The position numbers were made by a program, and so were the translations under genes. Positions 17,752-34,449 of a stretch of 56,413 nt of DNA are shown here, piece by piece. Numbering within the stretch: position 1 is the first letter of the stretch; the number at the start of each line of letters is the position of its first letter. The stretch is taken from the NCBI GenBank assembly GCA_963848545.1, contig CAWKEZ010000037.1, positions 1 through 56,413 on the forward strand, in the 5' to 3' direction. The DNA is from an uncultured Thermoleophilia bacterium (GTDB lineage Bacteria; Actinomycetota; Thermoleophilia; UBA2241). Below the pieces are notes generated by a model. It did no database searches. It was not told where the DNA came from and saw nothing but the letters and a program-made list of their open reading frames with translations.

Positions 17752-18966
17752 TCAGCTCTCCAGGAACGTTTTCAGACGCTTCAGCCCCTCCTCGATCTCG
17801 CTGGTGCCGATGCCCCCGTAGGCCACCCGCAAGTAGTACCGCGTCTCAGCGTCGAGCGCGGGACCGAAGTGGGCGCGCGTGCACATCGACACGCCGGTCT
17901 CGCGGAGGACGACACGCCGGAACGCCTCGTAGTCCGTGAGCCCCTTGCGCTGCATGGCGCCGGTTACGTCGGGATAGAGGTAGAAGGTGGTGTTGGGCCG
18001 CAAACAGGTGACCCCGGCGGTTGAGTCGAGGATGTCGGCCGCCACATCGCGGCGCTCGCGCAGCACCGTGGTGATGTAGTGCGCTCCGCGCTGGTCACCG
18101 GTGAGGGCCTCCAGACCGCCCCACTGCACGAACTGGTTGGTACACGACTCGAGATTGGTGTTGAGCTTTACGATCACATCGATGACGGCCTCGGGCCCGA
18201 TCGCCGCACCCAGCCGCCAGCCGGTCATCGCGTACTTCTTGGAGAATGTAAAGAGGATCACGCAGCGGCTCTGCATGCCGGGCAGCGAGGCCAGCGAGCG
18301 GCTGCGGCCGCCGTCGAGACGCACGTCGAAGTAGGCTTCGTCGCAGAGCACCTGCAGGTCGTGCTCGAGCACCAGCTCCGCCAGCCGTTGCAGCTCGGCC
18401 GGGGTGCACTCGGCCCCGGTGGGGTTGTGCAGATCGTTCAAGATGAGCAGCCTGGTGCGCGCCGAGATGCTCCGCTCGAGGCCGTCGAGGTCGATGGCAA
18501 AACCGTTGGCGCCCTGATGCAGGGTGTAGGGCACCGCGGTGCCACCCAGGTACCCTATCAGCGAGCTGTAGATGGGAAACCCGGGGTTGGGGTAGAGCAC
18601 CTCGTCGCCGCTGTTCATCATGGCCATCAGGAACTTGCCGATCACGGGCTTGCCGCCCGGCTGCACGGCCACGTTGTCGGCGCCGTAGCTCAGCCCGCGA
18701 GCCTCGCCCACCTGCGCGGCGAGCACATCGCGCAGCTCGGGAAGGCCCGCGTTGGGGCAATACATGGTCTTGCCGTCGCGCATCGCCTTGCAGGTGGCCT
18801 CGACGATGTTCTCGGGCGTCGGCAGGTTGAGGTCGCCGAGGTGGAACGGGTACACGCGATGCCCTTGCGCCGCGAAGGCGTTCGCCTCGGCGGCCGCCGT
18901 GAACGCGTTCTCGGTGCCGAGACGATCGGTTCTACGCGCCAGCGACGCGGTCGCCACGGCAGCCAT
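17752..18966 (-). CDS. PLP-dependent aminotransferase, class I/II
   Basis: Intact 404-aa ORF with fold-type I aminotransferase pattern: YPNPGFPIY, NDLHNPTG, and the lysine motif FSKKYAMTGWRLG. The specific substrate cannot be assigned. Confidence 0.85.
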   Translation of the reverse strand: MAAVATASLARRTDRLGTENAFTAAAEANAFAAQGHRVYPFHLGDLNLPTPENIVEATCKAMRDGKTMYCPNAGLPELRDVLAAQVGEARGLSYGADNVAVQPGGKPVIGKFLMAMMNSGDEVLYPNPGFPIYSSLIGYLGGTAVPYTLHQGANGFAIDLDGLERSISARTRLLILNDLHNPTGAECTPAELQRLAELVLEHDLQVLCDEAYFDVRLDGGRSRSLASLPGMQSRCVILFTFSKKYAMTGWRLGAAIGPEAVIDVIVKLNTNLESCTNQFVQWGGLEALTGDQRGAHYITTVLRERRDVAADILDSTAGVTCLRPNTTFYLYPDVTGAMQRKGLTDYEAFRRVVLRETGVSMCTRAHFGPALDAETRYYLRVAYGGIGTSEIEEGLKRLKTFLES

Positions 18967-18968: not shown

Positions 18969-19814
18969 TCAGTGTGCCGCCCAGGCGACGAACTTGTCGT
19001 GCTCGCCCTCGAGCATGCGGTAGCAGTGCGCCTCTTCGGGGAAGACGCCGCCGCGCACGTCTTTGACGTACTCACGGAGAGCCGCGGTGGCCACCCCGGC
19101 CAGATCGGCGTACTTCTTCACGAACTTGGGCGTGAACGCCTGGAACGTGCCCAGCACGTCGCTCACGATGAGCAGTTGACCGTCGACCGACTCACCGGCG
19201 CCGATGCCGAGCACGGGAATAGGCAGCTCGGCCCTGATGAACGCGGCCACCTCGGGCGGCACGGCCTCGAGCAGCAGCAGCTGCACGCCTGCCTGGTAGA
19301 GGGCGCGGGCGTCTTCGACGACCAGCTTGGCGCTCTCCAGCGTGCGACCCTGGGCCTTGTGGCCGCCGAGCTGCCCCGAGCTCTGCGGCGTGAGGCCGAT
19401 GTGGCCGCAGACCACGATGCCGGCGTCGAGGATGGCCTTCACGCGGCTGATCACGCGCACCCCACCCTCGAGCTTGATGGCGTCGACGTCCGCCTCCTTC
19501 AGGAAGCGGCCGGCATTACGCACCGCCTCTTCATCGGACACCTGGTAGCTCATGAACGGCATGTCGCCGACGACGAACGCGCTGGGAGCGCCGCGACGCA
19601 CCGCCTCGCAGTGCACGATGCACTGGTCCATGGTCACCGGCACCGTGCCGGGATAGCCGTACACGCACATGCCGAGTGAGTCGCCCACCAGGATCATGTC
19701 GATGCCGGCGGCCTCCTCGAAGGTGGCCGTGGGGTAGTCGTAGGCGGTGAGCCAGGTAATCTTCTCGCCCCGGCGCTTCATCTCGTGAAGGTCGAGAACG
19801 CCCTTCTTCGGCAT
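18969..19814 (-). CDS. panB: 3-methyl-2-oxobutanoate hydroxymethyltransferase
   Basis: Intact 281-aa ORF with PanB family motifs: TAYDYPTA, LVGDSLGM, GDMPFMSY, AIKLEGG, GHIGLTPQS, IGIGAG...DGQLLV. Confidence 0.9.
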   Translation of the reverse strand: MPKKGVLDLHEMKRRGEKITWLTAYDYPTATFEEAAGIDMILVGDSLGMCVYGYPGTVPVTMDQCIVHCEAVRRGAPSAFVVGDMPFMSYQVSDEEAVRNAGRFLKEADVDAIKLEGGVRVISRVKAILDAGIVVCGHIGLTPQSSGQLGGHKAQGRTLESAKLVVEDARALYQAGVQLLLLEAVPPEVAAFIRAELPIPVLGIGAGESVDGQLLIVSDVLGTFQAFTPKFVKKYADLAGVATAALREYVKDVRGGVFPEEAHCYRMLEGEHDKFVAWAAH

Positions 19815-19894: not shown

Positions 19895-20392
19895 TCATCC
19901 GCCGTTCGGGAATACCGGCCAGCCTTTGTCTGACACCGATTCGGCGAGCACCAGAAGCGTCTCGAACTGCATTACACCGGGGATCTTGGCCAGGTCTACC
20001 CGCACCATCTGGGCGAGATGGTCGAGGTCGCGGACGGCGAGAAGGATGATCATGTCGAACTGCCCGGTGACGTGGTAGCAGACGCGCACACCCAGAACGT
20101 GTTTCACCGCCTCTTCGAAGGTGCGGATGGCCTCCTGGTTGTGCTCGCGCAGCTTCGCCATCACCACGGCCTGCACGCCGATGCCCAGCGCCGCCGGGCT
20201 GGCGATGGCGCGGTACTCGCGGATGGCGCCGCTGTTCTCCAGCCTGCGCACGCGGCCCAGCATGGCCGACGGGGAGAGGTTGAAGCGGCGCGCCAGGGCC
20301 AGGTTCGAGATACGCCCTTCGCGCTGCAGTGCCTCCACTATGTCTCTGTCCAGTGAGTCCAACTCTTCCTCCAGGGTCTCCGAGAGGCGCAA
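19895..20392 (-). CDS. Lrp/AsnC family transcriptional regulator
   Basis: Intact 165-aa ORF. It has an N-terminal HTH (LDRDIVEALQREGRISNLALARRFNLSPSAMLGRVRRLENSGAI) and a C-terminal RAM/AsnC_trans_reg domain. Confidence 0.85.
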   Translation of the reverse strand: MRLSETLEEELDSLDRDIVEALQREGRISNLALARRFNLSPSAMLGRVRRLENSGAIREYRAIASPAALGIGVQAVVMAKLREHNQEAIRTFEEAVKHVLGVRVCYHVTGQFDMIILLAVRDLDHLAQMVRVDLAKIPGVMQFETLLVLAESVSDKGWPVFPNGG

Positions 20393-20498: not shown

Positions 20499-21486
20499 TC
20501 ATTTGCCCTCGGCAACAACCTCGGCCAGAGCCTCCACAGTGGCCACGCCATCGTCTACCACCGCGACGTCGGCGTTGCCCATGATCGCCGCCTGCTCGTC
20601 AAGGTTGATGGCCACGATGAACGCCGCCTTCTCGATGCCCCAGTGCAGCGCCGCCGCCCCCGAGGCCCCGGCGACGACACAGACCACCGGTGCCACGCGC
20701 GCGCCGGAGACCCCGACGAGGCGGTCCATGGGGGCCCAAGCGTTCATCGCCACTGGGCGCGTCACGCCAAAGGCGGCGCCCATGCGCCGCGCGGCCAGGG
20801 CGATGCGCTCCACCCCATCGCGGCTCCCCGCCCCGTACCCCGCCACCACCACAAACCGGCTGCCGGCGAGGTCGCCGGCGCCCGGCAGATCGGTGAGCTC
20901 GAAGGTCTTCGAACGGCGCCGGGGCCGCCTCTGCCGACCCCGCGGGCACGGCCTCGTCCTCCACCTCGCCCAGGATGCGGTGCTCACCTGGGGCGGGGGC
21001 GGGGCCGTCGTTCCAGCTGGCGTCGATGCTGACGCACCACGGCCGGGCGCGCAGGGCAAAGCGCCCCATCAGGTGGTTGGAGTAGACGCTCTTGCGGCAG
21101 AGGAGGCGCTCCGGGCCCGCCTGCGCGCGCAGCACGTCGGTGAGCAGCGCTCCGCCGCGGCGCACAGCAAGCCGCGCGGCCAGCTCGCTGCCGGCGCAAC
21201 CGGGGGCGCATACGTGGAGCGCCACGTCGCCGAGCGACGTCGCGTCGCACGCCGCGGCCGCCAGCGCGGCCAGGCGCTCTGGCCGCCGCGCCGCCGTGCG
21301 CACCAGCCGCACGTCGCGAGTGGGCGCCAACCCCACGAGGCGCCCGCGCTCGCGCGCATCCGTGTAGAGGATCAACGTCTCCCCCACCAGCTCGCCGCTC
21401 AGGCCCTCGGCGAGAAAGCTGCCCAAGGCCCGCGCCTGCCGCGGCGCTCCGGCGATCGTCCCGTCGACGATGGCGACGAATCTCAT
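20499..21486 (-). pseudogene. etfA: electron transfer flavoprotein alpha subunit-like (one frame switch)
   Basis: The ATG at 21486 overlaps the etfB stop (ATGA). The N-terminal domain lies in the ORF 20599..22269 frame (MRFVAIVDG...). The FAD-binding C-terminus lies in ORF 20499..21059 (VVVAGYGAGS...VTRPVAMNAWAPMDRLVGVSGARVAP...VAGASGAAALHWGIEKAAFIVAINLDEQAAI). The switch is near 20905. Confidence 0.8.
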
Positions 21487-22328
21487 GACGGCCCGGTCAT
21501 GCCTGCCAGCAAGCCTTTCAGATGCGCGTCGTAGACCGTCTCCGCCTTCTCGCGCGGCGTATCCCCGGCGGCGATCACGCCGCGCCGGCCGCGAGCGATG
21601 GCCTCGAGCCCCGCGAGGACGCCGCCGGACTCGCGGCCCACCTCGGCGGTAACGTCTACGCCCAGCTCCCGCGGCGTCAGAGTGGCGATGACGTGGTCGC
21701 GGCGCGCGAGGCGCGCCGCCAGGGTGGGCACGCGCAGGTGCGATACCACGGCATTGCCCACTGCCAGCACGCAGGGGGGTCGCAGCGTGAGACGCAACAG
21801 GCCATCGCCCGTCACGCAGGCCACCCGCAAGCGCCCCGCGGGCTGCGGCTCTACCTCGGTGACCTCCGCCAAGCAGGGCCAGCCCAACGCCTCCGCCACG
21901 AAGAACGGCACGGCGCCGCTGTCGCCAGGGCCACAACGCTCGCCGAGCAGCAGCAGATCGCTGTGATCTATCGCGCGCGCGTAGCTTGCCAGAAGCGCCG
22001 CGGTGACGGCCGGCGCGAAGTCGAGGTTCACCTCCGGGTGCACCCGGGCCACGCGCTCGTATCCCAGCGCCGACAGCGTCTTCAGGAACGGCTCGGCCCC
22101 GCGACCGCCCACGGTGACGGCACCGAGGTCGAGCGAACCGCCGGCCGGGCCGCCGCCGGCCGTTGCTTCCGCCAGGCGCAGCGCCAACTCCAAGGCACTC
22201 TCGTCGAAACAGTTGAGCACGCGACGCACGTAGGCGATGTCTGCGCCGTGCGCCGCGGCGGCGACCCACGCGGCATCGCGCAACGCCTCGTAATCAGGGG
22301 TGACCTTGAAGCACACGAGGATCTTCAT
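21483..22328 (-). CDS. etfB: electron transfer flavoprotein beta subunit-like
   Basis: Intact ORF. MKILVCFKVTPDYE... is a typical ETF-beta/FixA-like N-terminus. The start is taken at ATG 22328; GTG 22337 is also possible. Confidence 0.8.
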   Translation of the reverse strand: MKILVCFKVTPDYEALRDAAWVAAAAHGADIAYVRRVLNCFDESALELALRLAEATAGGGPAGGSLDLGAVTVGGRGAEPFLKTLSALGYERVARVHPEVNLDFAPAVTAALLASYARAIDHSDLLLLGERCGPGDSGAVPFFVAEALGWPCLAEVTEVEPQPAGRLRVACVTGDGLLRLTLRPPCVLAVGNAVVSHLRVPTLAARLARRDHVIATLTPRELGVDVTAEVGRESGGVLAGLEAIARGRRGVIAAGDTPREKAETVYDAHLKGLLAGMTGPS

Positions 22329-22349
22329 GGCGCTCACCCTTCATAGGGC

Positions 22350-23792
22350 TCACTTCGGCAAGATCGTACCCTTGTTCATGATGTCGTTGGGGTCGAAGGC
22401 CTTCTTCAGGGTCTCCAGGATGAAGTACGACGACCCGTACTCGTCTCTCACCCACGGGGTGCGCGCTTTGCCCAGACCGTGATGGTGGACGATAGAGCCG
22501 CCCAGGCGCAGCGTCTCCCCACAGATGATCTCGTTGATGGGGGTGTGGTATTTGGTGATCTCCTCCTGGGGCTCGCAGTCGACCACGTTGTAGTAGTAGA
22601 CGAAGTACATGTTGGTGCCGTTTATGTAGCTGTGGGAAGAGTGACCGCCGGCCATGGTGATGTCTGGGATCTCGGCGATGATGCGGCACCGGGCGCTCTC
22701 GTAGATGTCGTAGATGCAGTCCCAGCAGCCGGAGACCTCGGTGGTGAAGCCGACGTTGCCGGTCTGCGCGATCTCTTCACGCTCCTCGGCGATCTTGTCT
22801 GGACCCCAGTTGAGGTCGGCGAACCAGGTGGCGATGAGCTTACCATCGACCTCCCGGCACTCGGGGTGGCGCGCCACGATGGCCGCGATGCCCTCGGCCG
22901 TGGCCCGGGCCACGCCCGCCGCGCCCTCGGCCATGAAGATCAGGATGCAGTCGTCCTCGGCCGCGAAGTGGGAGAAGTGGAAGGCGCCGTCGTCGGGGTC
23001 GTAGAGACGCGCCACCGAAGGCTTGTAACCGTTCACCATGACCTCGCGCAACACCTCGAAGCCGGTCTTCATGCTCTTCAGAGTGTAGCCCAGGAAGGCG
23101 TTGTTCTCGGGCAAGTAAGGATACAGCTTCACCGTGACCTCGGTGATGTAGCAGAGAGCGCCCTCGTTGCCGATCACCACATGGCGGATGTCGGGGCCCG
23201 CCGCGCGCCGCGGGACGTTCTTGATGCGCGTCACGGTGCCGTCGGGGAACACCGCCTCCAGGCCGACCACCATGTCTTCGATGCCGCCGTAGAGGGTCGA
23301 GAACTGGCCGATGCTGCGCGTCGCCACGAGGCCGCCCATCTGCGCCAGTGGTTTGGACTGCGGCGAGTGCCCGGTGGTCAGCCCTTGCTCGCGGGCGCGG
23401 TCTTCCAGCACCTGCAGCGGCGCGCCGCACTGTGCGGTGGCCTGCATGTTGTAGGCGTCGATCTTGAGAATCTGGTTCATGGGCGAGCCGTCGAGGACGA
23501 TGGAGTCGGCCACCGCCGTCTCGAGACCGCCCTCGGTGGCCGTGTGCCCCGTGCGGGGCACCACGTTGATGCCGTGCGCGTTGGCGAACTTGAGCACCGC
23601 GGCGACCTGCTCGGTGCTGTGCACCATGACCACCGCGGCGGGGAGCGGCTGAGTATAGACACCGTGAATCTCTTCGAACTTGCGGTAGCGGTCGACGCTG
23701 CTCTCCTGGAGCACGCGATGGTCGGTGATGACGGCCTCCGGGCTCAAGATGCTCTGCAGACCTGCGACGATGTCTTCTCTCTTCAAGTGCAT
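22350..23792 (-). CDS. FAD-linked oxidase (VAO/PCMH fold), alkyl-DHAP-synthase/YgcU-like
   Basis: Intact ORF from ATG 23792 (MHLKREDIVAGL...). The FAD_binding_4 region is VVMVHSTEQVAAVLKFANAHGINVVPRTGHTATEGG. The C-terminal part carries HSSHSYINGTNMYF and the tri-His motif VHHHGLGK. Confidence 0.85.
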   Translation of the reverse strand: MHLKREDIVAGLQSILSPEAVITDHRVLQESSVDRYRKFEEIHGVYTQPLPAAVVMVHSTEQVAAVLKFANAHGINVVPRTGHTATEGGLETAVADSIVLDGSPMNQILKIDAYNMQATAQCGAPLQVLEDRAREQGLTTGHSPQSKPLAQMGGLVATRSIGQFSTLYGGIEDMVVGLEAVFPDGTVTRIKNVPRRAAGPDIRHVVIGNEGALCYITEVTVKLYPYLPENNAFLGYTLKSMKTGFEVLREVMVNGYKPSVARLYDPDDGAFHFSHFAAEDDCILIFMAEGAAGVARATAEGIAAIVARHPECREVDGKLIATWFADLNWGPDKIAEEREEIAQTGNVGFTTEVSGCWDCIYDIYESARCRIIAEIPDITMAGGHSSHSYINGTNMYFVYYYNVVDCEPQEEITKYHTPINEIICGETLRLGGSIVHHHGLGKARTPWVRDEYGSSYFILETLKKAFDPNDIMNKGTILPK

Positions 23793-23832
23793 GACGGCAC
23801 TCCCTGGTATGTGTTCGCGGCTTGCGATGGAA

Positions 23833-25263
23833 CTAGTGAAAGATCGGATACGAACGCTCGAGGACCCCATCGGTGGTGTCGCGGATGGTTCTGTAGACGG
23901 CGTTCATGCGCGCGTACAGGTCGGCGTTCGGCGGATCTGGGGAAAACGTCTCGCGCTGCTTCGTCATGGCGGCCACGGCGGTAACGAAGTCGGGGTAGAC
24001 GCCGGTGGCCACGGCCGCACAGATCGCCGACCCCAGGCCGGCACCGCCGCCGGCCACGCTGCGCGACGACGGAATGCCGAACACGTCAGCGAAGATGCGC
24101 ATGAAGAGCGGGCTGCTGGCGCCGCCACCCGAGACGACGATCTCGTTCAGCACGATGCCCAGCTCGGCGCACATCGCATCGACCCGGCTCTTCATGGTCA
24201 AGGCGATGGCCTCGAGGATGGAGCGGTAGATGTGGGCCCTGGTGTGGCGCGCGTCGAAGCCGAGCATGACGCCCTTGCGAAACGGGGCCTCGGCGGGAGC
24301 GAGCCAGTCCAGGACGGTCATCAGGCCGTCGCTGCCCGCGGCGACCGACTGTGCCTCGCGTTCCAGGTACTGCTCCCGCGAGAGCCCCTGCGCCCGGGCC
24401 GCCTTGGCCACGTCGTCGCCGAGGATGTCCAGGAACCAGCTCACCGTCCACATGCCCCGGCGGATGCCGTGACTCTCATAGAGATACTGGTTCGGCACGC
24501 AGGCGAAGTTTGTCCAGAACTCCCTGGGCGTCTTCAAGTTCTGGCGGCCGTGCACCATGGAGGCTATGTAGGTGCCCAGCGAGATGAGGGCCGTCTTCTC
24601 GGAGAGCGAGCCCGAGCCCAGGGCCTCCACCGCCTTGTCGTTGGCGGTGGCCACCACCGGGATCCCGCTGGGCATGCCGGTGGCCGCGGCCGCGGCCGCC
24701 GTCACGTGCCCAGCGACGCTGCCAGGCATCTGCAGGTTGAACAGCATCTCGCGCGGGATGGCCCACCGCTCGAGGACGGCAGGATCGTTGCTCCACTGCC
24801 ACGTGTCGGTATCGATCGGCCATTGCCCCTCGATGTAGTTGGCGACCGTGTCGCTGAACTGCCCCGTGAAGCGATGCGTGATGTAGCCCGAGCTCGTGGT
24901 CACGTAGGCGACGGCCGGGTTGTCGGCCACGTAGGGCTCATACGCCCGGGTGTCCATCCAGCTCATCGCCGGCGACGCCAGGGAGCCGTCTTCTTTGAGG
25001 AAGGCGCGCTCGCAGCGTATGGTGCAGACGCCGACGCCGACGATCTCGTGCGGATCACCGCCGAACTGCGCCATCGCCCGGCGGCTGGCGGCGGCGATGG
25101 AGTCCCAGAGATCGTCGTCGGGGTGCTCGACGACCCCGTTTCGTGGGCGGCTCATGGGGCGCAGCGCCTGCCTGCTCTCGCAGACGACGCTGCCTTCGCG
25201 GTCGTAGATGGCCACCTTGGAGCTCTGCGAGCCGCCGTCTACGCCGATGATGTAGGTGCCCAT
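23833..25263 (-). CDS. FGGY-family carbohydrate kinase
   Basis: Intact 476-aa ORF. N-terminus IGVDGGSQSSKVAIYD; C-terminal domain VVSGGGASSPLFMRIFADVFG...GAGLGSAICAAVATGVY. Confidence 0.85.
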   Translation of the reverse strand: MGTYIIGVDGGSQSSKVAIYDREGSVVCESRQALRPMSRPRNGVVEHPDDDLWDSIAAASRRAMAQFGGDPHEIVGVGVCTIRCERAFLKEDGSLASPAMSWMDTRAYEPYVADNPAVAYVTTSSGYITHRFTGQFSDTVANYIEGQWPIDTDTWQWSNDPAVLERWAIPREMLFNLQMPGSVAGHVTAAAAAATGMPSGIPVVATANDKAVEALGSGSLSEKTALISLGTYIASMVHGRQNLKTPREFWTNFACVPNQYLYESHGIRRGMWTVSWFLDILGDDVAKAARAQGLSREQYLEREAQSVAAGSDGLMTVLDWLAPAEAPFRKGVMLGFDARHTRAHIYRSILEAIALTMKSRVDAMCAELGIVLNEIVVSGGGASSPLFMRIFADVFGIPSSRSVAGGGAGLGSAICAAVATGVYPDFVTAVAAMTKQRETFSPDPPNADLYARMNAVYRTIRDTTDGVLERSYPIFH

Positions 25264-25275
25264 CGCGTCGCCGCC

Positions 25276-26052
25276 CTAGCGAACCCGGTATCCGCCATCC
25301 ACCACCACGAGGTGGCCGTTCACGTAGTCGGATGCCCGGCTGGCCAAAAAGACGACGGCGCCCATCAGGTCGAGGGGCTCGCCCCAGCGGCCCGCCGGAA
25401 TGTGGTCTAGCACGCGCTGGTTGGTCTCGGGGTTGCTGCGCGTCGCGCTCGTGATCTCGGTCGCGTAGTAGCCCGGCGCGATGCCGTTGACCTGGATGTT
25501 GTACTGGGCGAGTTCGTCGCAGTAGGCCTTGGTGAAGCCGGCGAGGCCGTGCTTGGTGGCCGCATAGGCCGGCGACCACTGCCCGCCGAGGTACGAGAAG
25601 AGCGAGCAGGTGTTGATGATCTTGCCGCTACGCTGCGGGATCATGTGCTTCGCGGCCTCGTAGCTCAGCTCGAAGGCGGCGGTGAGGTTGACGTCGATCA
25701 TTGGGTCCCACTGCGGTCTGCCGAAGTCGAGTACCTCGGCGAGCTTGCAGATGCCGGCGCTGTTTACCAGGATGTCGATCGCGCCGAGCCTCGCCACGCA
25801 CGCGTCGATGATCTCCCGGCAGGCGCCCGGCGCGGTGACGTCTATCTTCAGGAACTCGTAGCGGCCGCCGGCGGCCTCGATCATCTCCCTGGTCTCGCCG
25901 TCGTCGTCCATGATGCTGGGGACGAAGACGTTGGCGCCGCCCTTGGCGAGGGCCAGCGCGAACGCCTGGCCAAGCCCCGTGTTGCCCCCGGTGACGATGC
26001 TGTTTCTGCCCTCCAGGGAGAAATAACCCATGGCGAAATCTGTGATGCCCAT
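25276..26052 (-). CDS. short-chain dehydrogenase/reductase, KduD/YgcW-like
   Basis: Intact from ATG 26052 (MGITDFAMGYFSLEGRNSIVTGGNTGLGQA). It has the TGxxxGxG motif, NSAG, and the catalytic YAATKHG (YxxxK). Confidence 0.9.
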   Translation of the reverse strand: MGITDFAMGYFSLEGRNSIVTGGNTGLGQAFALALAKGGANVFVPSIMDDDGETREMIEAAGGRYEFLKIDVTAPGACREIIDACVARLGAIDILVNSAGICKLAEVLDFGRPQWDPMIDVNLTAAFELSYEAAKHMIPQRSGKIINTCSLFSYLGGQWSPAYAATKHGLAGFTKAYCDELAQYNIQVNGIAPGYYATEITSATRSNPETNQRVLDHIPAGRWGEPLDLMGAVVFLASRASDYVNGHLVVVDGGYRVR

Positions 26053-26099
26053 CGTAGACTGTCTCCTTAGCTGCGGATTAGGCGGCCGCGTGCGACGCG

Positions 26100-28265
26100 C
26101 TACGCGTTGCTCGTGGCGACGCCGTCCGCTGCGGTCTGGAGCTGAAGCAGCTCTTCGGGAGGAATATGGCACTTGTACTGGTGCCCTGTTACGCCCTGCT
26201 GAACCGGCGGCTCCTGCTCCGCGCAGATATCGCCGAGGAAGCGGTGGCAGCGCGTGTGAAAGCGGCAGCCCGAGGGCGGCTCGCTGAGGCTCGGCATGGT
26301 GCCGCGCAGGGGGATGCGCCGCCGCGTTTCCGCGAAGTTCAGCGTCGGGATAGAGGAGAGCAGCGCCTCCGTGTAGGGATGGTGCGGCGGGTTGAAGACC
26401 TCTTCGGCGGAGCCGACTTCTATGAGCTCCGCCAGGTACATGACGCCGATGCGGTCGGAGATGTAGCGCACCACCGCCAGGTCGTGGCTGATGAAGATGT
26501 ACGACACCGCCTCGTTGGTCTGCAGCTCAACGAGGAGGTTGAGGATGCTGGCCTGCACCGAGACGTCCAGGGCGGAGGCGGGCTCGTCGCAGACCACCAG
26601 GGTGGGGTCGCCGGCGAAGGCGCGGGCGATGGCGATGCGCTGCTTCTGACCGCCCGAGAGGTCCATGGGCTTCTGCAGCAGAAAGCGCGGCTCCACGCGC
26701 ACGTCGGCGGACAACTTGTCGACCTTGGCCCGCACCGAGCCGGCTTTCGCCCCGGCCAGCTTGCGCACCGAGCGCGTGAGGATGGCGCGCGTGCTCCAGG
26801 CGGGGTTCAGCGTTGAGTCTGGGTTCTGGAAGACCATCTGGATGGCGCGCAGCGCCTCCTGCGAGCGGCGACCGGCCGTGGGGCGCAGCCGTTTGCCCTC
26901 GAAGGTGATGGCGCCGGAGTCGGCGGCGATGAGGCCGGTAACGCACTTTGCCAGGGTGGTCTTGCCACTGCCCGATTCGCCCACCAAGCCGAACGTCTCG
27001 CCCCGCCGCAAGTTGAGCGACACGTCGTGCACGGCGGTGAGCTTCTTGCGCCCGTCTTTGAACGTGCGTCTCACGGTGTCGATCTTGAGCACGTCGCCCT
27101 CGGTTGCGCCCCTGGCCGCCGCGCCGCTGGCCAGCACCGGCACCATGCGCGGCATCTGTGGCACCTCGGCAGCGAAATAGCAGCGCGAGTAGCGGGTGGC
27201 GTCGCCGACCGGCGCGGCGTGATGCGGCGAGTAGGCCTCCGGGTCGGGCGGCATGGACTCGGCCTGCGCACGTCCCTGGGGACCTTCGTCTCCGGGCCAC
27301 GCGTAGAGGTCTGGCTCGCGCCTGGTACACACCGGCTTGGCCACTGGGCAACGCGCCGAGTAGACGCACCCCTTGAGGGGTTCGCCGAGGGCAGGCAGCG
27401 TGCCGGGGATGGTTTGCAGCGCCGCGTCCGACTTGTTCATGCCGAAACGCGGCACGCAACGCAGCAGGCCCATGGTGTACGGGTGTCTCGGGTCGGTGAA
27501 GATCTCGCGCGCCGGGCCCTCTTCAACGAGGCGGCCCGCGTACAGCACACCCACCCGCTCGCAGAGCCGGGCGACGAGGCCCAGGTTGTGCGTGATAAGG
27601 AGGATAGCCGAATGGATGCGGCCACGCAGCTCCTCGATAAGGTCGAGGATCTCGGCCTCCACCGTGGCGTCGAGGCCGGTGGTGGGCTCGTCGAGGATCA
27701 GAAGATGCGGGTTCACGGCCAGCGCCATGGCGATGACCACGCGCTGCTGCTGGCCGCCCGACAACTCGAACGGGTAGCGATTCAGGGTCGCCGCGGGGTC
27801 GGGCAGCGCCACCTTGCGCAGGGCCTCCTGGGCGCGCTCCAGGGCCTCGGCCTTGCTGAGGCCCTCGTGGTAGCGGAACACCTCGGCGACCTGGTCGCCG
27901 ACCTTCATGGCGGGGCTCAGCGCGGTCGCCGGATCCTGGTAGACCATGGCCACGGCCTCACCACGCCACTTGCGCAGGGCCTCTTCGCTCAGCGTGCTGA
28001 CGTCGCGGCCCTCAACCAGCACCTGGCCGGCGTCGACCGTGCCGTTGCGCGCCAGAAAGCGTAGCGCCGCCATCGCCAGCGTGGTCTTGCCGCAGCCCGA
28101 CTCGCCGACCAGGCCGTAGGCCTCGCCGGGTTGAATACGCAAGGTGACACCCTTGAGCACCGGCAGGTCGCGGCCGCGACGGTGGAAGGTCACTTCCAGG
28201 TCGCGGACGTCGAGCGCGGCCGGCGCGGGCTGTGAGGGGGTAGTCTGGTAATCCACGGCGCTCAC
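26100..28265 (-). CDS. fused double ABC ATPase of a peptide/opine-type (Dpp/Opp/GsiA-like) importer
   Basis: Intact 721-aa ORF with two ATPase modules. Walker A: GESGCGKT and GESGSGKT. Signature: LSGGQQQR and LSGGQKQR. Walker B: LLILDEPT and LVVCDEPA. The start overlaps the upstream permease stop. Confidence 0.9.
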   Translation of the reverse strand: MSAVDYQTTPSQPAPAALDVRDLEVTFHRRGRDLPVLKGVTLRIQPGEAYGLVGESGCGKTTLAMAALRFLARNGTVDAGQVLVEGRDVSTLSEEALRKWRGEAVAMVYQDPATALSPAMKVGDQVAEVFRYHEGLSKAEALERAQEALRKVALPDPAATLNRYPFELSGGQQQRVVIAMALAVNPHLLILDEPTTGLDATVEAEILDLIEELRGRIHSAILLITHNLGLVARLCERVGVLYAGRLVEEGPAREIFTDPRHPYTMGLLRCVPRFGMNKSDAALQTIPGTLPALGEPLKGCVYSARCPVAKPVCTRREPDLYAWPGDEGPQGRAQAESMPPDPEAYSPHHAAPVGDATRYSRCYFAAEVPQMPRMVPVLASGAAARGATEGDVLKIDTVRRTFKDGRKKLTAVHDVSLNLRRGETFGLVGESGSGKTTLAKCVTGLIAADSGAITFEGKRLRPTAGRRSQEALRAIQMVFQNPDSTLNPAWSTRAILTRSVRKLAGAKAGSVRAKVDKLSADVRVEPRFLLQKPMDLSGGQKQRIAIARAFAGDPTLVVCDEPASALDVSVQASILNLLVELQTNEAVSYIFISHDLAVVRYISDRIGVMYLAELIEVGSAEEVFNPPHHPYTEALLSSIPTLNFAETRRRIPLRGTMPSLSEPPSGCRFHTRCHRFLGDICAEQEPPVQQGVTGHQYKCHIPPEELLQLQTAADGVATSNA

Positions 28266-29154
28266 TTCGAGAACACCGAGCTGAGGCCGTCGGCGATGAG
28301 GTTCACGCCCACCACCAGCGAGGCCAAGGCCAGGGCCGGGAACACCACCGTCCAGGGGGCACCCTGCAGGTTGGCTCTCTCGCTGGCGATAACGAGGCCC
28401 CAGTCGGGCGACGGCGGCTCGAGGCCAAACCCGAGGAACGACAGCGTGGCGGCGGTGAACACGGCGTAGCCGAGGCGCACGGTTCCCTCTACGATGATCG
28501 GCTGCGTGATGTTGGGCAGAATCTCGCGGGCCATCACGAAGGCGGAGCGCTCGCCGCGCAGGTTCGCCGCCATGACGTACTCGCGCTCGCGCTCGCCGAT
28601 GACGGCCGAGCGGATGGTGCGCGAGACGACCGGCGTGAACAGCGCGCCGATGACCAGGATGAGGACGCCGTACGAGCGGCCGAGCAGCGAGATGATGAGG
28701 ATCGAGGTGATGATGATCGGCAGCGCCAGGAAGGCGTCGACGATACGCATGATGATGTCGTCGGTGATGCCCCGGTAGAAGCCGGCGACGAGGCCGACGA
28801 TGGCGCCCCAGAGCAGCGCCAGCATGGTGGCCAGCGGTGCAATGATGAGCACGGTGTAGGCACCGGCCATGGTGCGCGCGAAGACGTCGCGCCCGAGATC
28901 GTCGGTGCCAAACCAGTGGGCGCTGCTGGGCCCACCCAGTATGGTCCCTGTGGGCGTCGTGGGGCTCTGCGTGATGTGCGTGGAGACGAGGGCCATGAAG
29001 ATCCAGAAGAGCACGATGCAGAGACCGACCAGGAAGGTCGGCTGCGAAACAGTGCCCTGACGATGAAGCGCCGCTGACGCCGCTGCTCCGCCGCCGCGGC
29101 GGCGTCTGCCTGCAGCTCCTCCGTGTGGCGATCGGGTGTGATAGCAGTGGCCAC
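28262..29154 (-). pseudogene. ABC transporter permease, DppC/OppC-like (one frame switch)
   Basis: ORF 28262..29014 is the membrane domain with the EAA-type loop (YVMAANLRGERSAFVMAREILPNI). The N-terminus (MATAITPDRHTEELQ...RRFIVRALFRS) lies in the ORF 28534..29154 frame. The switch is near 29040. Confidence 0.8.
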
Positions 29155-29158
29155 CGCG

Positions 29159-30103
29159 TCAGGCCGCCTTGCGGATACGCGGGTTAAGCAGAGCCACCAC
29201 GATGTCGGCGGTCAGGTTGGAGATCATGTAGATCACCGCGATGACGAGCACGCAGGCCTCGAGCAGAGGCTGGTCGTGGTTGAGCGCCGCATTGACCGAG
29301 TAGTTGCCGATACCGGGGTACGTGAATAGCGTCTCGACCACCACGAGACCGCCGATCAGCCAGCCGATCTGGCTGCCGATCACCGTGACGGTGGGCACGA
29401 GGCAGTTGCGCAGCACGTGGCTGAAGACGACGCGACGCATCGGCAGACCTTTGAGGATCGCCGTGCGGATGTACGGCATGTTGAGCACTTGCACGGTACC
29501 CACGCGAGCCATGCGCGCGATGTAGCCGAGCTCGATGAGCATGAGCGGGATGGCCGGTAAGATGAGGTAGTAGAAGCGGTCGATGAACGGCCCGCCCGCC
29601 GGCATGGCGTACGACGGTAACCAGTGCAGCGTGACCGAGAAGATCACGATGAGGATGACGCCGCTCACGAACTCGGGCATCACGGTCATCGACAGCGCGA
29701 AGATGGTGATCGCCCGGTCGGCGATGCTGTCGCGATGCAGACCGGCGAACACCCCCACGAAGATCGACGTGGGCACGATGATCACGAGCGCGAAGCCGGC
29801 CAGCAGAAGTGAGTTGGCGAGAGCGTGCCCCACGATGGAAGAGACCGGCAGGTTGTACTGGTACGACGCTGCCCCAGTGACCGGTGATGAAGTGGCCGGC
29901 CCATCGACGTAGCGCACGTAGATCGGCTTGTCGAGGCCCATCTTGCGGTCGAGCTGGTTGACAGCCGATTGCGTGGCGTAAGGACCCAGGATGACCCGCC
30001 CCAAGTCGCCGGGCAGCACCTCGGAGAGGGCGAACACCAGGATCGATACCAGGATCAGCGTCGGCACGATGAGCAACAGTCGACGACCGATGAAGCGTGC
30101 CAT
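29159..30103 (-). CDS. ABC transporter permease, DppB/OppB-like
   Basis: Intact 314-aa ORF. It begins MARFIGRRLLLIVPTLILVS and contains YIRTAILKGLPMRRVVFSHVLRNCLVP. Confidence 0.9.
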   Translation of the reverse strand: MARFIGRRLLLIVPTLILVSILVFALSEVLPGDLGRVILGPYATQSAVNQLDRKMGLDKPIYVRYVDGPATSSPVTGAASYQYNLPVSSIVGHALANSLLLAGFALVIIVPTSIFVGVFAGLHRDSIADRAITIFALSMTVMPEFVSGVILIVIFSVTLHWLPSYAMPAGGPFIDRFYYLILPAIPLMLIELGYIARMARVGTVQVLNMPYIRTAILKGLPMRRVVFSHVLRNCLVPTVTVIGSQIGWLIGGLVVVETLFTYPGIGNYSVNAALNHDQPLLEACVLVIAVIYMISNLTADIVVALLNPRIRKAA

Positions 30104-30112
30104 CCCGGGTCC

Positions 30113-31834
30113 CTACGTCAGTTTCTTTCTGTGATGGTCTGTAAGGCCGTTCCTTACTTCGTGATGTAGGCCATGGCTGACGTCGAAGTAGAACGAGCCC
30201 GGACCCTCGATGCCGTGCACGGTCTTCTTCTGGGTGCGCAGCTGCGAGATGAAGAACGCTACTACGATCGGCGTCTGCTCCTGCTGGATCGACGACAGCT
30301 TGGTGGCCAGCGTCTTGCGCGTCGCCACGTCGGCGGTCGACTCGTACGAGTTGAAGGTGTTGAGCGAAGGTCGGGTTGTTCCAGTGCGAGGAGCTCCAGG
30401 CGCTGGTCGGCAGCAGCATCGCCTGCCGCGAACTCGCCGGGCGTGGGCCGGCTGCCCCACTCGACGATGATCATCGGCGCGTTGAGCCACGGCGTGGTGG
30501 CGTTGCTGCCGGCGTAGATGGCGTCGTAGCTGATCTCGTTGAGCGTGACGTTGATGCCGGCGGGCTTGCACTGCGCCTGGATGAGCTGCGCGTACGGCGG
30601 GTTCTCGAGGTAGTTGGCCACGGTCAGCGTGACGTCGACACCGTTGGGATGACCGGCGGCGGCGAGCAGCGACTTGGCCTTGGCGTAATCCTGGGCACGG
30701 GTCGCCGGGGTGGGGCTGCCCGGGAACACCGTGGGCTCCCAGAAGGTGTCGTAGCCGAGGTTGCTGCGCCCGCCGTAGAGCGCCTGGTTGATGGCCGGAC
30801 GGTCGAGGCAGTAAGCCACCGCCTGGCGCACCCGGTAGTCCTGCCAGGGGGCCTTGTTGACGTTGAAGGCGAGCTCGCGAATGCCGGTAGACGGATACAC
30901 GTCGACCCGCAGGTTGGGATCGCTCAGCACCGAGGCGCCGCCCTGGAAGACCGTCTGCGGCTGCACATCCACGGCCCCCGACTCGAGCTGCAGGTTGGCC
31001 GCCGAGGTGTCGGTGACGAAGGTGAAGTCGAGCTCGTCGAGGTAGGGAAGCTGACGCCCCTGGGTGTCTTTGCCCCAGTAGGTCGGGTTCTTGACCATGG
31101 AGCAGCGCTGGTTGGTGACGAAGCTCTTCATCATCCAGGGGCCGGTGCCCACGGCCTTGGCCTGGAAGTCGCCGCTGTAGTTGCGCGGCAGGATGGCGGT
31201 GTTGTAGTTCCCGGGGGCTCACCAGGTACGGGAAGTCGGCGAACGGCTTCTCGAGGTTGAACTCCACCGTATGCGTGTCGAGCGCCTTGGTGCCGCCCGC
31301 CGAGAGAATCCCGCCCAACTGGGACAGGGCGCCCGAGCCGCTCTTGGGGTTCAAGACGCGATCGAAGCTGGCCACCACGTCGGCCGCCTCGAAGGGGCTG
31401 CCGTCGTTGAACGTGACGCCCTGGCGCAGCTTGAAGGTCCACACATCGCCCTTGGTGTTGGGCGCCCAGCTCACCGCCAGCTTCGGCCTGAGGGCGTTCT
31501 GGTTGGTCAGGTCGACGAGGTACTCGGCGATCTGGTAGACGAGGACGATGCCGCCCTGGTCGTAGATCGTGACCGGGTCGAGGGTCTTGAGGGGCGGCGG
31601 GATGACTGCCTTCATGGTGCCGCCCAGCACTACCGCCGGCATACCGCTGGCGGTCGGCGAAGCGGAGGGCGACGTTGAGCTGCCGCCACAGGCGGCCAGC
31701 AACTGCCCGATGACGGTGGCCGAAAGGCCGAAGACCGAGGCGCGAATGAGCAGCTGGCGCCGCGTCATCCTGCCGTTCACCACCTGCTCGACCAGGTGCT
31801 GCCCGTACTCCCTTGCGTACTGCTCGTCAGCCAT
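30113..31834 (-). pseudogene. ABC transporter substrate-binding protein, family 5, Tat/lipoprotein signal (frame disrupted)
   Basis: The ATG at 31834 is preceded by GGGGGAG. The signal is RRQLLIRASVFGLSATVIGQLLAACGG. The body is split over the frames of ORFs 30113..31903, 30262..31152 and 29184..30419. Frame switches lie at the G5 run 31213..31217, near 30420 and near 30370, with a possible fourth near 30170 (alternative stop TAA at 30154). Confidence 0.85.
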
Positions 31835-32164: not shown

Positions 32165-33004
32165 GTGTTCGGTGGATTCTCTTCTTCGTTGTCGCGGAGG
32201 GTAGTCAGGGTGGAGAAAAGGCGCCGCGCGCCGGCTCGGTCGAGCCCGCTGTACCTGTGGGTCGCGTCGCTGGTGCGCGACCAGATCGAGGCCGGGCACC
32301 TGGAGCCGCACGTCTCGATCCTGTCCGAACGCGCCCTCAGCGAGCGCTACCAGGTCAGCCGCATGACCGCCCGCCACGCCGTGGAGACCCTGACGCTCGA
32401 GGGCTACGTCTATCGCAGCCCTCGCAAAGGCACGTTCGTCGCCGAGCCCCGCCTGCGCTTCAGCGTGGGGAGCTTCACGCGCATCATGAGCGAGACGGAT
32501 CACCTGCCAGGTACCAGGGTCCTCTCGGCCGGCACGTTAGACCCCGACCCCCTCATCGCGAAGCTGCTCGACGTACCGCCCGGGGGCCAGGTGCACCTTC
32601 TGCAGCGCCTGCGCACGGCGAACGGCGAGCCCATCGCCATCGAGAACATCCACGTCTCGGCGGAGCGCTTTCCGGACCTCCTGGATCACGACCTCACCGG
32701 CTCGCTATGGGAGCTCCTGCGGGCCCGCTACGACGTCCACCCAATGAGAGCCGACGCCCGCGTCGTCGCCGTCACCCTCGACCGCTTCGAGGCAGAGACT
32801 CTCGGGGTGAGACCGGGGAGCCCGGCGATCGTCCTCACCCGTACCGTATTCGACGCCGACGACGAGATCGTGGAGCTGGCCCGCGACGTGTACCGCGGCG
32901 ACCGCACCGAGTTCTACGTGACCGCGCCGGTGGAGAGCATCCCGGCCGCGCTGGGCGAGCGGGCCGTCGCGTACCCGGGCGACGACCCGGCAGACGACGT
33001 CTGA
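32165..33004 (+). CDS. GntR family regulator, HutC subfamily (UTRA effector domain)
   Basis: Intact ORF. The winged HTH is PLYLWVASLVRDQIEAGHLEPHVSILSERALSERYQVSRMTARHAVETLTLEGYVYRSPRKGTFV. A UTRA-like C-terminus follows. The true start may lie downstream, for example GTG near 32207. Confidence 0.85.
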   Translation: MFGGFSSSLSRRVVRVEKRRRAPARSSPLYLWVASLVRDQIEAGHLEPHVSILSERALSERYQVSRMTARHAVETLTLEGYVYRSPRKGTFVAEPRLRFSVGSFTRIMSETDHLPGTRVLSAGTLDPDPLIAKLLDVPPGGQVHLLQRLRTANGEPIAIENIHVSAERFPDLLDHDLTGSLWELLRARYDVHPMRADARVVAVTLDRFEAETLGVRPGSPAIVLTRTVFDADDEIVELARDVYRGDRTEFYVTAPVESIPAALGERAVAYPGDDPADDV

Positions 33005-33020: not shown

Positions 33021-34379
33021 TCAGAAGAGACGCACCCCCTGCCTCTGCAGCGCCCGCTGCAGGCGAGGAATGTCTACCTGGGAACTGGTCGTGCCGTCCC
33101 TGAGCGAGACCGCGGCGGCCACGCCGGCGGCCTGCCCGGTGACCGCACAACACATCTGGTTGCGAGTCGCGCCGTGCGAAACTTTGTCGCCGGCCACGCA
33201 GCGCCCCGCGACGAGCAGGTTCTTCGACGCCACGCGGGACGAGGATCCCGTAGGGAACCTGGAAGTAGCGGCCCGTGGTCGGCAGGATCAGCACGCCGTA
33301 TCCGTCGATGAACTCCGGGAAGATGCCAATGGAATCGTCGAACCGGGCCTGGCTGCGCACGTCGTCGCCGGTCAGGGTGTAGCGGCCGCTGATCTTCCTC
33401 GAGTCGCGCGTGCCCAAGGTCATCCCGAAGTTCCGCAGCCGGGCATTCTCGAACCCCGGCAGGTAGCGTCGCAGCGCCTCGACGGCGAGCAGCGCCTGAG
33501 CCCTTCCGTCGATCTCCGCCCGCGTGAGGTCGCGCACCTCCGTGCAGTCCACGTTGGCCAGGCTGATCAGGTTGAGGCCCGTCGCCTGCCCGTCCTCGGA
33601 GACGCTGCTCCAGGTGCCGGCGATGCTCTTCATGCCGGTGGAATAACGCCGTCGCGACGCGCCTCCTCGAACGGCTTCTCCAGGTAAGGGCTGAAGAGCG
33701 CGTCCTCTTTGCCGCCGGTCGTCGTGCTCCAGCTCTTGCCCCAGTCGGCGTAGGTGGCGGGATTCTCCCGCACGTGAGTCATGAAGCGCCGCCGGTTCAC
33801 GCCGGAGCACGAGAACATGACGGTGACGCCCATCATCTCCGCGACGGGCGTCTTGCGGTAAGGAGCCCCCGCGCGCACGGCGATGTCGGCGTCGCCGCTG
33901 GCGTCGATGACGCGCGCCGCGAGGATCGCCTGGCGTCCGGACTTGCTCTCGGTGACCACCCCCCGAATGGTGCCACCGTCCATGATCGCGTCGACCGCCA
34001 GGCAGTGCAGCAGAGGCTCAACGCCCGCCTCTCGCACGAGCTCGTCGGCGACGCATTTGAAGAGCTCGGGATTGAGCGCCTCGCTCTCTGACTGAGGCTC
34101 GCGCTGCGTACCGCCCATGGCCTTCGCCCGGCGTTCGAACTCGAGCCCGATGCCCTCCACGTCAACCGTGCCTGCGTGGCGATACCAGGCGATGCTCTCG
34201 ACGCCCACCTGCGTGATGACGCCGCCGAAGCACCCGTAGCGGTCGACGAGCATGGTGGCGGCCCCTTCGCGGGCGGCGGCCACGGCGGCCGCCAAGCCGC
34301 CCGGGCCGCCGCCGACCACGAGCACGTCGGTCTCACCCAGCACAGGTGTGGTCTTGGGGCCCTCCACTATGTGTCGCAT
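33021..34379 (-). pseudogene. FAD-dependent oxidoreductase (GIDA/PF12831-like) (frame disrupted)
   Basis: The ATG at 34379 follows GGGAGG. The dinucleotide-binding motif is DVLVVGGGPGGLAAAVAAAREG. The protein is split over ORFs 33630..34484, 32914..33810 and 33021..33233. Frame switches lie near 33645 and 33235. Confidence 0.8.
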
Positions 34380-34449
34380 GTGACCTCCCATCGCCTTCCC
34401 TGCACCAAGCGCTTCAGACCTGCATTTGACAAAGCATAGCGCGAGGTCC

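Follow-up and report, generated by a model that had tools for sequence, protein, structure and literature searches.

A Thermoleophilia version of the orphan ygc-type gene module, associated with an Opp/Dpp-type importer and methylamine genes, and a proposed route for glycerol-linked betaines

We analyzed a 56,413-nucleotide stretch of DNA from an uncultured Thermoleophilia bacterium (contig CAWKEZ010000037.1 of assembly GCA_963848545.1; hereafter, the window), in which nine minus-strand genes form an operon-like array at positions 20,499 to 31,834. They encode an Opp/Dpp-type ABC importer (a family-5 solute-binding lipoprotein, two permeases and a fused double ATPase), a short-chain dehydrogenase/reductase (SDR), an FGGY kinase, a FAD-containing flavoenzyme, and the beta and alpha subunits of an electron transfer flavoprotein (ETF). 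Judged by sequence comparison, the array is a Thermoleophilia (Actinomycetota) version of the orphan ygc-type module of Escherichia coli with a dedicated, divergent ETF. With regard to its chemistry, we propose that the enzymes turn a glycerol-linked betaine into a 1-substituted dihydroxyacetone phosphate (DHAP), which is then cleaved, a proposal to which we assign a probability of about one half. An earlier sequence-only reading of this DNA had recognized the likeness to the ygc genes, and its interpretation was supported overall. The source assembly has a size of 2.09 Mb in 112 contigs and is 54% complete; the window is its contig C37, with ~68% G+C.

All five enzymes of the array are reciprocal best matches of E. 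coli YgcW, YgcE, YgcU, YgcR and YgcQ, in agreement with the idea that they represent the same orphan module. In BLASTP comparisons with the annotated K-12 ygc region, identities were 76% between the SDR and YgcW, 69.5% over the full length between the flavoenzyme and YgcU, 51% over 474 aa between the kinase and YgcE, 29-34% between ETF-beta and YgcR, and 46-47% between ETF-alpha and YgcQ (47% for the C-terminal half). When the whole K-12 chromosome was searched with each window protein, the margins were wide: the flavoenzyme matched YgcU with 767 bits vs 44 for the next match (at 3127140-3127859), the SDR matched YgcW with 443 vs 226, the kinase YgcE with 546 vs 78, ETF-beta YgcR with 76 vs 25 (at 42403-43056), and ETF-alpha YgcQ with 83 vs 51. 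In the reverse search, each E. coli Ygc protein found the window gene first in the source genome. No FixC/FixX-type partner (YgcN/YgcO) was detected in the window, as had been noticed before; the only such pair of the source genome is located on another contig (C51, 17000-27803, locus L106), together with a second ETF pair, an acyl-CoA dehydrogenase and two CoA-transferase genes. This set is a possible electron outlet for the window ETF. Its layout is also reminiscent of the cai/fix carnitine genes. In the same 54%-complete genome, tblastn gave no match to the GlpP-like YgcP and only a 28% partial match to the major facilitator superfamily (MFS) carrier YgcS, on contig C88. Compared to the known ygc module, the window is new in that an ABC importer replaces the MFS carriers, GntR and AsnC regulators stand where the GlpP-like protein would be, an adjacent FixCX pair is absent, and the array is continuous with a corrinoid methyltransferase gene set.

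We further examined the occurrence of the flavoenzyme in a genome collection and found at least 588 relatives. The best 80 of these at least 588 are 68-81% identical to it and belong to Actinomycetota, non-enteric Gammaproteobacteria, Enterobacterales, Bacillota, Desulfobacterota and Acidobacteriota (Holophagaceae). Cultured carriers among these loci include Sporomusa malonica, Caproiciproducens and Serratia fonticola (L047, L062 and L083). The counts over long loci given here rest on these 80 top-ranked loci, which include many kin, and they describe a sample of non-independent members rather than serving as a test. Open reading frames around the 80 loci were clustered and cluster representatives were profile-scanned; 63 loci of at least 12 kb are referred to as long loci. 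The SDR was adjacent to the flavoenzyme in 63/63 long loci and the kinase in 62/63, representing at least 6 phylum-level groups. The ETF pair was adjacent in only 35/63 (Enterobacterales 14/15, Bacillota 7/7, Desulfobacterota 1/1, Holophagaceae 1/1, Actinomycetota 12/20, Acidimicrobiia 0/7 and metagenome-assembled genomes (MAGs) of Gammaproteobacteria 0/12), and the invariant unit is therefore the SDR-kinase-flavoenzyme triad rather than the ETF. An adjacent FixC was found only in Enterobacterales (14/15 long loci), and a GlpP-like YgcP in 14/15 Enterobacterales and 7/7 Bacillota long loci.

Within the genus, the flavoenzyme was detected in 16 of 24 other genomes, and it was found in 0/16 genomes of other families of the class. 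For 12 same-genus loci that were fetched for gene order, the synteny predicted by the sequence-only reading was observed: the order SDR-kinase-flavoenzyme-ETFbeta-ETFalpha was kept in 11, the 12th being cut by a contig end. The AsnC gene lies downstream of ETF-alpha in 9/12. A homologous importer adjoins the module in only 2/12; in 9/12, an MttB gene and a beta-hydroxyacid-dehydrogenase-like gene are located upstream of the SDR instead. With same-genus orthologues the flavoenzyme shares 70-76% identity vs 69.5% with YgcU, such that divergence is nearly flat from genus to phylum, which points to extreme constraint, horizontal transfer, or both.

The closest structurally characterized relative of the flavoenzyme by sequence was alkyldihydroxyacetonephosphate synthase (AGPS), which was the best PDB match with an E-value of 3.6e-42, compared with 2.7e-28 for glycolate oxidase and 3.1e-24 for LctD. 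A model predicted from 12 sequences had a mean pLDDT of 77.8, and a fold search with this model placed AGPS entries at ranks 1-29 (TM 0.78-0.79), followed by D-lactate dehydrogenases (TM 0.72-0.74). Residues R262, Y396 and H436-438 align to AGPS Arg419, Tyr578 and His615-617 and are invariant in 73/73 full-length family members; the three His residues begin the HHHGLGK motif (residues 436-442) that the sequence-only reading had pointed out. PDB titles show that Arg419His and Tyr578Phe mutants of AGPS have been deposited. The flavoenzyme (480 aa) aligns to AGPS residues 204-654 only. As the region matching AGPS residues 1-203 is absent, we refer to the protein as AGPS-like, on the basis of sequence, and do not call it an AGPS. 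A second GlcD-like FAD oxidase, which lacks the Tyr/HHH pattern and does not keep the Arg/Tyr/HHH set, follows the ETF genes in Bacillota loci L047, L053, L056 and L062. Such a gene is also present in two same-genus relatives (L014:14414-15832 and L023:2667-4085), and none occurs in the window.

Two other assignments of this enzyme have to be considered. It could be a D-2-hydroxyacid dehydrogenase of the LctBCD or GlcD type with a bifurcating ETF, since it has the same two Pfam domains, an adjacent ETF pair and the above match to LctD. We regard this as very improbable: AGPS is ahead of LctD by 18 orders of magnitude in E-value, the K-12 chromosome offers YgcU at a wide margin over anything else, the PDB matches of the ETF subunits are generic (Paracoccus ETF was the best for beta, LctC was not on top, and LctB gave no match), and the constant SDR and kinase partners would be needless in a lactate system. 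Thus, neither the oxidase nor the ETF groups as the sequence-only reading had feared, that is, with GlcD/D-lactate dehydrogenases and with LctBC, respectively. Conversely, the aligned catalytic residues and the closeness to AGPS might suggest a biosynthetic AGPS that makes bacterial ether lipids. To this we give hardly any credence, considering that the N-terminal part is missing, that kinase and SDR genes always accompany the gene and importers and catabolic regulators usually do so, and that the recurrent neighbour clusters scanned contained no acyltransferase.

Genes of methylamine and betaine metabolism were found around the triad in several lineages. In the window, the module and an AsnC-PanB-aminotransferase-corrinoid-MttB-MttB-SerA series form one co-directional array on the minus strand (Table 1). 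In five lineages the triad is located among MttB, MtbB, sarcosine-oxidase, OpuA or BCCT genes, and in at least 4 phyla it is transcribed in the same direction as genes for betaine-type carriers (OpuA, BCCT) and as MttB/Sox genes. Among long loci, MttB was near the triad in 12/20 Actinomycetota, 9/12 non-enteric Gammaproteobacteria, 2/7 Bacillota and 1/1 Desulfobacterota; MtbB in 12/20 Actinomycetota; sarcosine oxidase in 9/12 Gammaproteobacteria; OpuAC in 8/12 Gammaproteobacteria, 4/7 Bacillota and 1/1 Holophagaceae; and BCCT in 3/7 Bacillota. The company differs by lineage: MttB-family methyltransferases and an MtbB-type dimethylamine methyltransferase in Actinomycetota; a heterotetrameric sarcosine oxidase, a dimethylglycine dehydrogenase-like (DMGDH-like) enzyme, an OpuAC-permease fusion and a TonB receptor in Gammaproteobacteria MAGs; BCCT or OpuA carriers, MttB, PanB and a proline-racemase-like gene in Bacillota; and, in Desulfobacterota, MttB and MtbB together with an aldehyde dehydrogenase gene that immediately follows the ETF. 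Further neighbours include a BetI-type TetR regulator, a DMGDH-like enzyme and a GMC oxidoreductase. An aldehyde dehydrogenase directly follows the ETF in 2 Desulfobacterota loci and 1 Acidimicrobiia locus, and a glyoxalase-like gene and an aldehyde ferredoxin oxidoreductase (AFOR) gene were each found in 2 loci.

PanB is downstream of the module in 9/12 same-genus loci and is accompanied by the aminotransferase in 8/12. Within the genus, PanB was present in 16 genomes with the flavoenzyme and not found in 1, and it was present in 3 genomes in which the flavoenzyme was not found and not found in the other 5; these five genomes without both include a 100%-complete one. PanB adjoins the module in most relatives and is located beside MttB in two Bacillota loci (L054 and L059). 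That PanB tracks the module among these genomes, which are kin and not independent, is only a hint, but PanB may be catabolic here rather than serve pantothenate synthesis. In a quick tree, the PanB-adjacent MttBs of Bacillota and Thermoleophilia fell in one 11-row clade, which is unsure owing to long branches. We also observed an MtbB-type dimethylamine methyltransferase gene next to the module in an Actinomycetota MAG (L026:5197-6600, minus strand) that is interrupted only once, by an in-frame TAG at codon 355, the pattern that pyrrolysine would give. Pairs consisting of an MttB and an MttB fragment occur in L028, L030, L033, L038, L064, L067 and L070, and the split MttB genes of these relatives may reflect the same reading of TAG as pyrrolysine.

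Based on these data, we propose the following pathway. The imported compound would have a free glycerol-like end (-CHOH-CH2OH), with the other primary carbon bonded to a methylated amine or betaine. KduD, the best family for the SDR, oxidises secondary alcohols that adjoin a terminal CH2OH, FGGY kinases add phosphate to terminal CH2OH groups, and AGPS acts at C1 of 1-substituted DHAP. By analogy, the SDR would oxidise the secondary alcohol to a ketone, the kinase would phosphorylate the terminal CH2OH to give a 1-substituted DHAP, and the AGPS-like flavoenzyme would break the bond at C1, probably oxidatively, with two electrons passing to the ETF. Overall, the triad would convert X-CH2-CHOH-CH2OH to X-CH2-CO-CH2OP and then break the C1-X bond. 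Electrons from the ETF would be passed to a FixCX/ETF-QO-type (ETF:quinone oxidoreductase) enzyme encoded elsewhere, on contig C51, and the MttB/corrinoid system next to the module would remove methyl groups from the freed betaine. Oxidative cleavage would leave a 2-oxoaldehyde phosphate, in agreement with the ETF pair and with the genes for aldehyde dehydrogenase, a glyoxalase-like protein and AFOR in a few loci. Loci without the ETF could rely on oxygen or another acceptor, or the reaction could be redox-neutral overall. For X, the carriers of betaine type and the demethylation genes nearby suggest a methylated amine or betaine. The sequence-only reading had suggested an ETF-coupled oxidation of a phosphorylated polyol or sugar acid; a polyol or sugar acid is too plain as a substrate, as the multi-phylum context points to a glycerol-like moiety on a methylated amine or betaine.

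Such a plain polyol or sugar-acid route nevertheless deserves attention. In it, a free small polyol or sugar acid would enter through the importer, the SDR and the kinase would make a phosphorylated ketose, the flavoenzyme would be an ordinary ETF-linked dehydrogenase of that phosphate ester, and the methylamine genes would be mere neighbours. The family assignments agree with this, the SDR belonging closest to KduD and the best kinase models being xylulokinase, AI-2 kinase and ribulokinase, and so do the Enterobacterales loci, which have sugar-type MFS carriers. We consider it unlikely, in view of the AGPS-specific Arg/Tyr/HHH set, kept throughout the family in place of a GlcD/LDH pattern, the co-directional OpuA, BCCT and MttB/Sox genes in several phyla, and the recurrent neighbour clusters scanned, among which no typical aldolase, isomerase or epimerase turned up.

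Several observations weigh against the cleavage of a glycerol-linked betaine. Methylamine genes were found near the triad in 0/15 Enterobacterales and 0/7 Acidimicrobiia long loci, as the polyol route would have it, and the betaine link is thus lineage-specific. The MttBs adjacent to the module fell into several MttB lineages in the quick tree and formed no single module-specific clade; different amines, or mere co-location, are possible. The ETF pair is absent beside the triad in 28/63 long loci, and net oxidation may not be obligatory. The fold margin between AGPS and D-lactate dehydrogenase is small (E 7.6e-26 vs 2.5e-23, TM 0.78 vs 0.74), and the pLDDT of the model drops below 50 at residues 143-173 and 195-211. 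AGPS Arg419, Tyr578 and His615-617 are taken to be active-site residues, with presumed catalytic roles. In the literature, we found no assigned function for ygcU, ygcW, ygcE or other module members. Matches to E. coli ygc names were, in the portions of these sources that were available, promoter SELEX lists and screens, and a Citrobacter quaternary-amine proteomics study treats, in its accessible part, cai/fix genes and not ygc.

A more specific candidate for the substrate is the deacylated head of the betaine lipid diacylglyceryltrimethylhomoserine (DGTS), glyceryl-O-trimethylhomoserine, for which the array from 31834 to 12402 (importer, SDR, kinase, flavoenzyme, MttB, aminotransferase and PanB) could represent a pathway. 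We regard this as a long shot. The Opp-type importer would take up glyceryl-O-trimethylhomoserine, and the YgcW-type SDR and YgcE-type kinase would make an 'alkyl-DHAP' of its glycerol end. The YgcU-type flavoenzyme would oxidise C1, upon which the hemiacetal would fall apart, with electrons going to the ETF, that is, ether chemistry in the catabolic direction. MttB/corrinoid enzymes would strip the methyls from the freed homoserine betaine, the aminotransferase would yield 4-hydroxy-2-oxobutanoate, and a PanB-type enzyme acting in reverse would give pyruvate and methylene-tetrahydrofolate. As the head group is a glyceryl ether, no hydrolase could open it. In the parts of the literature that were accessible, we found nothing on bacterial catabolism of trimethylhomoserine or the DGTS head group. 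A GDSL-type lipase/acylhydrolase (cluster c63) is located beside the triad in two loci (L034:3461-4483 and L073, with labels Thermoleophilia and Gaiellales), both with the ETF pair absent; such neighbours would fit a lipid-derived substrate, although two loci are too few to weigh. Two other candidates were put aside by reasoning only. Glycerophosphocholine is already opened by ordinary phosphodiesterases, and 3-(trimethylammonio)propane-1,2-diol was not favoured as a natural substrate, as it is not known to have a natural source.

The features of the window are listed in Table 1. Profile searches of window proteins with Pfam and NCBIfam agreed with the nine minus-strand gene families named by the sequence-only reading and with their positions, and the ATGA overlap of the ETF genes and the divergent GntR regulator were found as well.

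Table 1. Features of the array and of its surroundings in the window.
Feature	Position	Strand	Basis or remark
MFS protein, truncated or split	3793-4365
MMPL protein, in two pieces	9765-12010
MttB, C-terminal fragment	14096..14710	-	profile search
MttB	15484..16707	-	profile search
Corrinoid protein	16992..17363	-	profile search
Class I/II aminotransferase	17752..18966	-	profile search
PanB	18969..19814	-	meets NCBI panB cut-off
AsnC/Lrp regulator	19895..20392	-	Pfam; directly downstream of ETF-alpha
ETF alpha subunit, YgcQ-type	20499..21486	-	ETF and ETF_alpha domains, in two frames; ATGA overlap with ETF-beta
ETF beta subunit, YgcR-type	21483..22328	-	Pfam ETF
AGPS-like FAD enzyme, YgcU orthologue	22350..23792	-	FAD_binding_4 and FAD-oxidase_C
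FGGY kinase, YgcE orthologue	23833..25263	-	reciprocal best match
SDR, YgcW orthologue	25276..26052	-	reciprocal best match
Fused OppD-OppF-type double ATPase, 721 aa	26100..28265	-	2x ABC_tran and 2x oligo_HPY
ABC permease C, DppC/NikC-like	28262..29158	-	BPD_transp_1; first in-frame start 29014
ABC permease B, DppB/NikB-like	29159..30103	-	BPD_transp_1 and BPD_transp_1_N; 93% identical to L017 orthologue
Family-5 solute-binding lipoprotein, Opp/Dpp-type ABC importer	30113..31834	-	Pfam SBP_bac_5, split over two frames
Divergent GntR/HutC-type regulator (GntR and UTRA)	32165..33004	+	Pfam/NCBIfam
PF12831 FAD oxidoreductase, half	33630..34484	-	profile search
GlpD-like glycerol-3-phosphate dehydrogenase	34502..36259	+	333 bits, just under NCBIfam cut-off 360
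BetI-type TetR regulator	36506..37108	+	profile search
Second SBP_bac_5 protein, without start	38393-39481
Aminotransferase-III, C-terminal third	40689-41357

The importer is complete in its makeup for the Opp/Dpp (peptide/opine/nickel) type, with SBP_bac_5, two BPD_transp_1 permeases and ATPases with the oligo_HPY tail. The binding protein has, read by eye, a twin-arginine-like signal and an LAAC lipobox, and its middle part is 88% identical to the orthologue in locus L017, the closest relative. The double ATPase is likewise fused in relatives, as shown by single high-scoring pairs of 702-712 aa. No importer protein reached an NCBIfam equivalog cut-off that would indicate a substrate class; when the PDB was searched with the intact binding-protein orthologue, the top matches were uncharacterised binding proteins that gave no ligand hint. 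Among the enzymes, the best NCBIfam model of the SDR was KduD NF005390 (319.7 bits, under the cut-off of 369), and the kinase was assigned by both NCBIfam and Pfam models. The domains of an ETF heterodimer are all present, with the ETF domain in beta and the ETF and FAD-binding ETF_alpha domains in alpha. The GntR/UTRA regulator stays beside the importer in L017 (88% identity), L028 and L029, and short inverted repeats are present in the spacer between it and the binding-protein gene. A promoter scan of 12300-32200 returned 0 promoter-like sites, a terminator scan of the same region 5 terminator-like sites (vs 6.6 expected), all within genes, and an Rfam scan two tRNAs only, with no riboswitch or leader.

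On the other side of the importer, the PF12831 gene has a counterpart beside the importer in L017 and is seen again in 5/20 long Actinomycetota loci, and the BetI-type TetR gene recurs beside the module in L026. The GlpD-like gene had been read as an echo of the glycerol-phosphate link of ygcP; the gene is indeed there, but the echo is weak, as no GlpD homologue flanks the 63 long or the 12 same-genus loci. Elsewhere in the window, a DUF34/NIF3 and RNase H-like fusion (507-2228, minus strand) and a molybdopterin oxidoreductase with a 4Fe-4S subunit (48823-51953, minus strand) appear unrelated to the array.

The array is not intact as assembled: frame shifts affect the genes of the binding protein and ETF-alpha, and permease C at its start and permease B over a short distance are also out of frame. 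Frames were analyzed with the intact proteins of L017, which has ~89% nucleotide identity over the importer half, as tblastn queries. Compared with its L017 orthologue, the binding-protein gene runs through frames -1/-2/-3/-1, with one extra base near each of 31212, 30438 and 30364. The length of the ETF-alpha gene, 988 nt, is not divisible by 3, and its frame changes near 20903; in L014 and L017 the gene is in a single frame. Permease B has a compensated 11-codon out-of-frame stretch (29903-29869). In permease C, ~50 N-terminal codons are out of frame, and the L017 protein matches only from residue 51. This affects the claim that no gap in the array exceeds 47 nt: seven gaps (9, -4, 47, 12, 40, 21 and -4 nt) agree with it, but that between permeases B and C is 144 nt when measured from the first in-frame permease C start, because the N-terminus is out of frame.

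These breaks could be real, in which case the cluster would be decaying and uptake and electron transfer would be lost. At least 7 indel-type breaks within 11.3 kb are in line with decay, and only 1 of 8 break sites examined falls in a homopolymer run. One DNA sequencing run (0.05 of the sampled words) covers none of the frameshift sites; its contigs mostly match the ATPase gene at 90-95% likeness and therefore probably come from other organisms. We nevertheless find decay quite improbable. The displaced frames have no stops, keep a third-position G+C (GC3) of ~0.9 and show 84-88% protein identity to the orthologue, with third-position G+C jumping between frames inside two genes. Truncated and split genes extend all over the window, beyond the array, in an indel-type pattern, and assemblies of relatives break the same genes at other positions. 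For these reasons, we most likely deal with errors of assembly in the binding-protein, permease and ETF-alpha genes, and the organism itself probably has a functional module.

The ygc genes are among the conserved E. coli clusters that are still without a function. Between E. coli on the one hand and soil actinobacteria, Bacillota and Desulfobacterota on the other, the core flavoenzyme retains ~70% identity, indicating a strongly constrained and widespread reaction, and the importer, the continuity with demethylation genes and the AGPS-type active site narrow the search for its substrate to glycerol-linked betaines or glyceryl ethers. If correct, our proposal would describe a novel type of ether or C-N bond cleavage, and it would provide bacteria of soil and gut with a route for recycling betaine lipids and supplying methylamine metabolism. 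If the DGTS head were indeed the substrate, an ether cleavage of the AGPS type would be seen in catabolism for the first time, and the E. coli ygc genes would be given a chemistry, that of glyceryl ethers.

Among known systems, the E. coli K-12 cluster (ygcN-ygcO-ygcP / ygcQ-ygcR-ygcS-ygcU-ygcW / yqcE-ygcE, all annotated as 'putative') shares with the window a W-U core followed by an ETF beta-alpha pair and the HHHGxGK motif. The E. coli cluster contains two MFS carriers (YgcS and YqcE), a GlpP-like antiterminator and FixC/FixX alongside, none of which accompanies the window module; the latter has instead the Opp/Dpp-type ABC importer, regulators of the GntR and AsnC families and, downstream, MttB/corrinoid/PanB genes. 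The W-E-U order is contiguous in the window, whereas the E. coli kinase is in a divergent operon. A partially similar gene set is the Pseudomonas aeruginosa operon PA3026-PA3024, activated by GliR (PA3027), which, according to the part of the report available, encodes a FAD-binding oxidoreductase, a GlpD homologue and an FGGY kinase; the authors link the FAD oxidoreductase to alkylglycerone phosphate, and they describe a PA3026-PA3024 deletion mutant with no growth or Biolog phenotype (PMC8151288). Compared by this description only, the operon resembles the window in combining an FGGY kinase, a FAD oxidoreductase and a glycerol-3-phosphate-dehydrogenase-type enzyme, but a GlpD homologue replaces the SDR, an ETF pair is absent, and regulation is by an AraC-type protein.

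The LctBCD lactate dehydrogenase-ETF complex (PDB 7qh2) also has a flavoenzyme gene of the VAO (vanillyl-alcohol oxidase) fold beside an ETF pair, as in the window, but it is a much weaker match than AGPS and is without the Tyr and HHH pattern and without an SDR or kinase partner. The window MttB and corrinoid protein belong to the families of MtgB/MtgC-type quaternary-amine:corrinoid methyltransferase systems. This MttB is about equally far from the trimethylamine enzyme (7xcl, E 1.7e-43) and from glycine betaine enzymes (9yce and 2qne, E ~2e-42), and thus fits neither substrate better than the other. AGPS (PDB 4bby and 2uuu) is the nearest solved relative of the flavoenzyme by both sequence and fold, with an identity of only 22-24%. 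AGPS is biosynthetic, whereas the window module is located with importers and catabolic genes. In addition, AGPS is not known to have an ETF partner or to carry out a net redox reaction. The substrate of AGPS is a 1-substituted DHAP, and this is the type of compound that the SDR and the kinase could make from a substituted glycerol.

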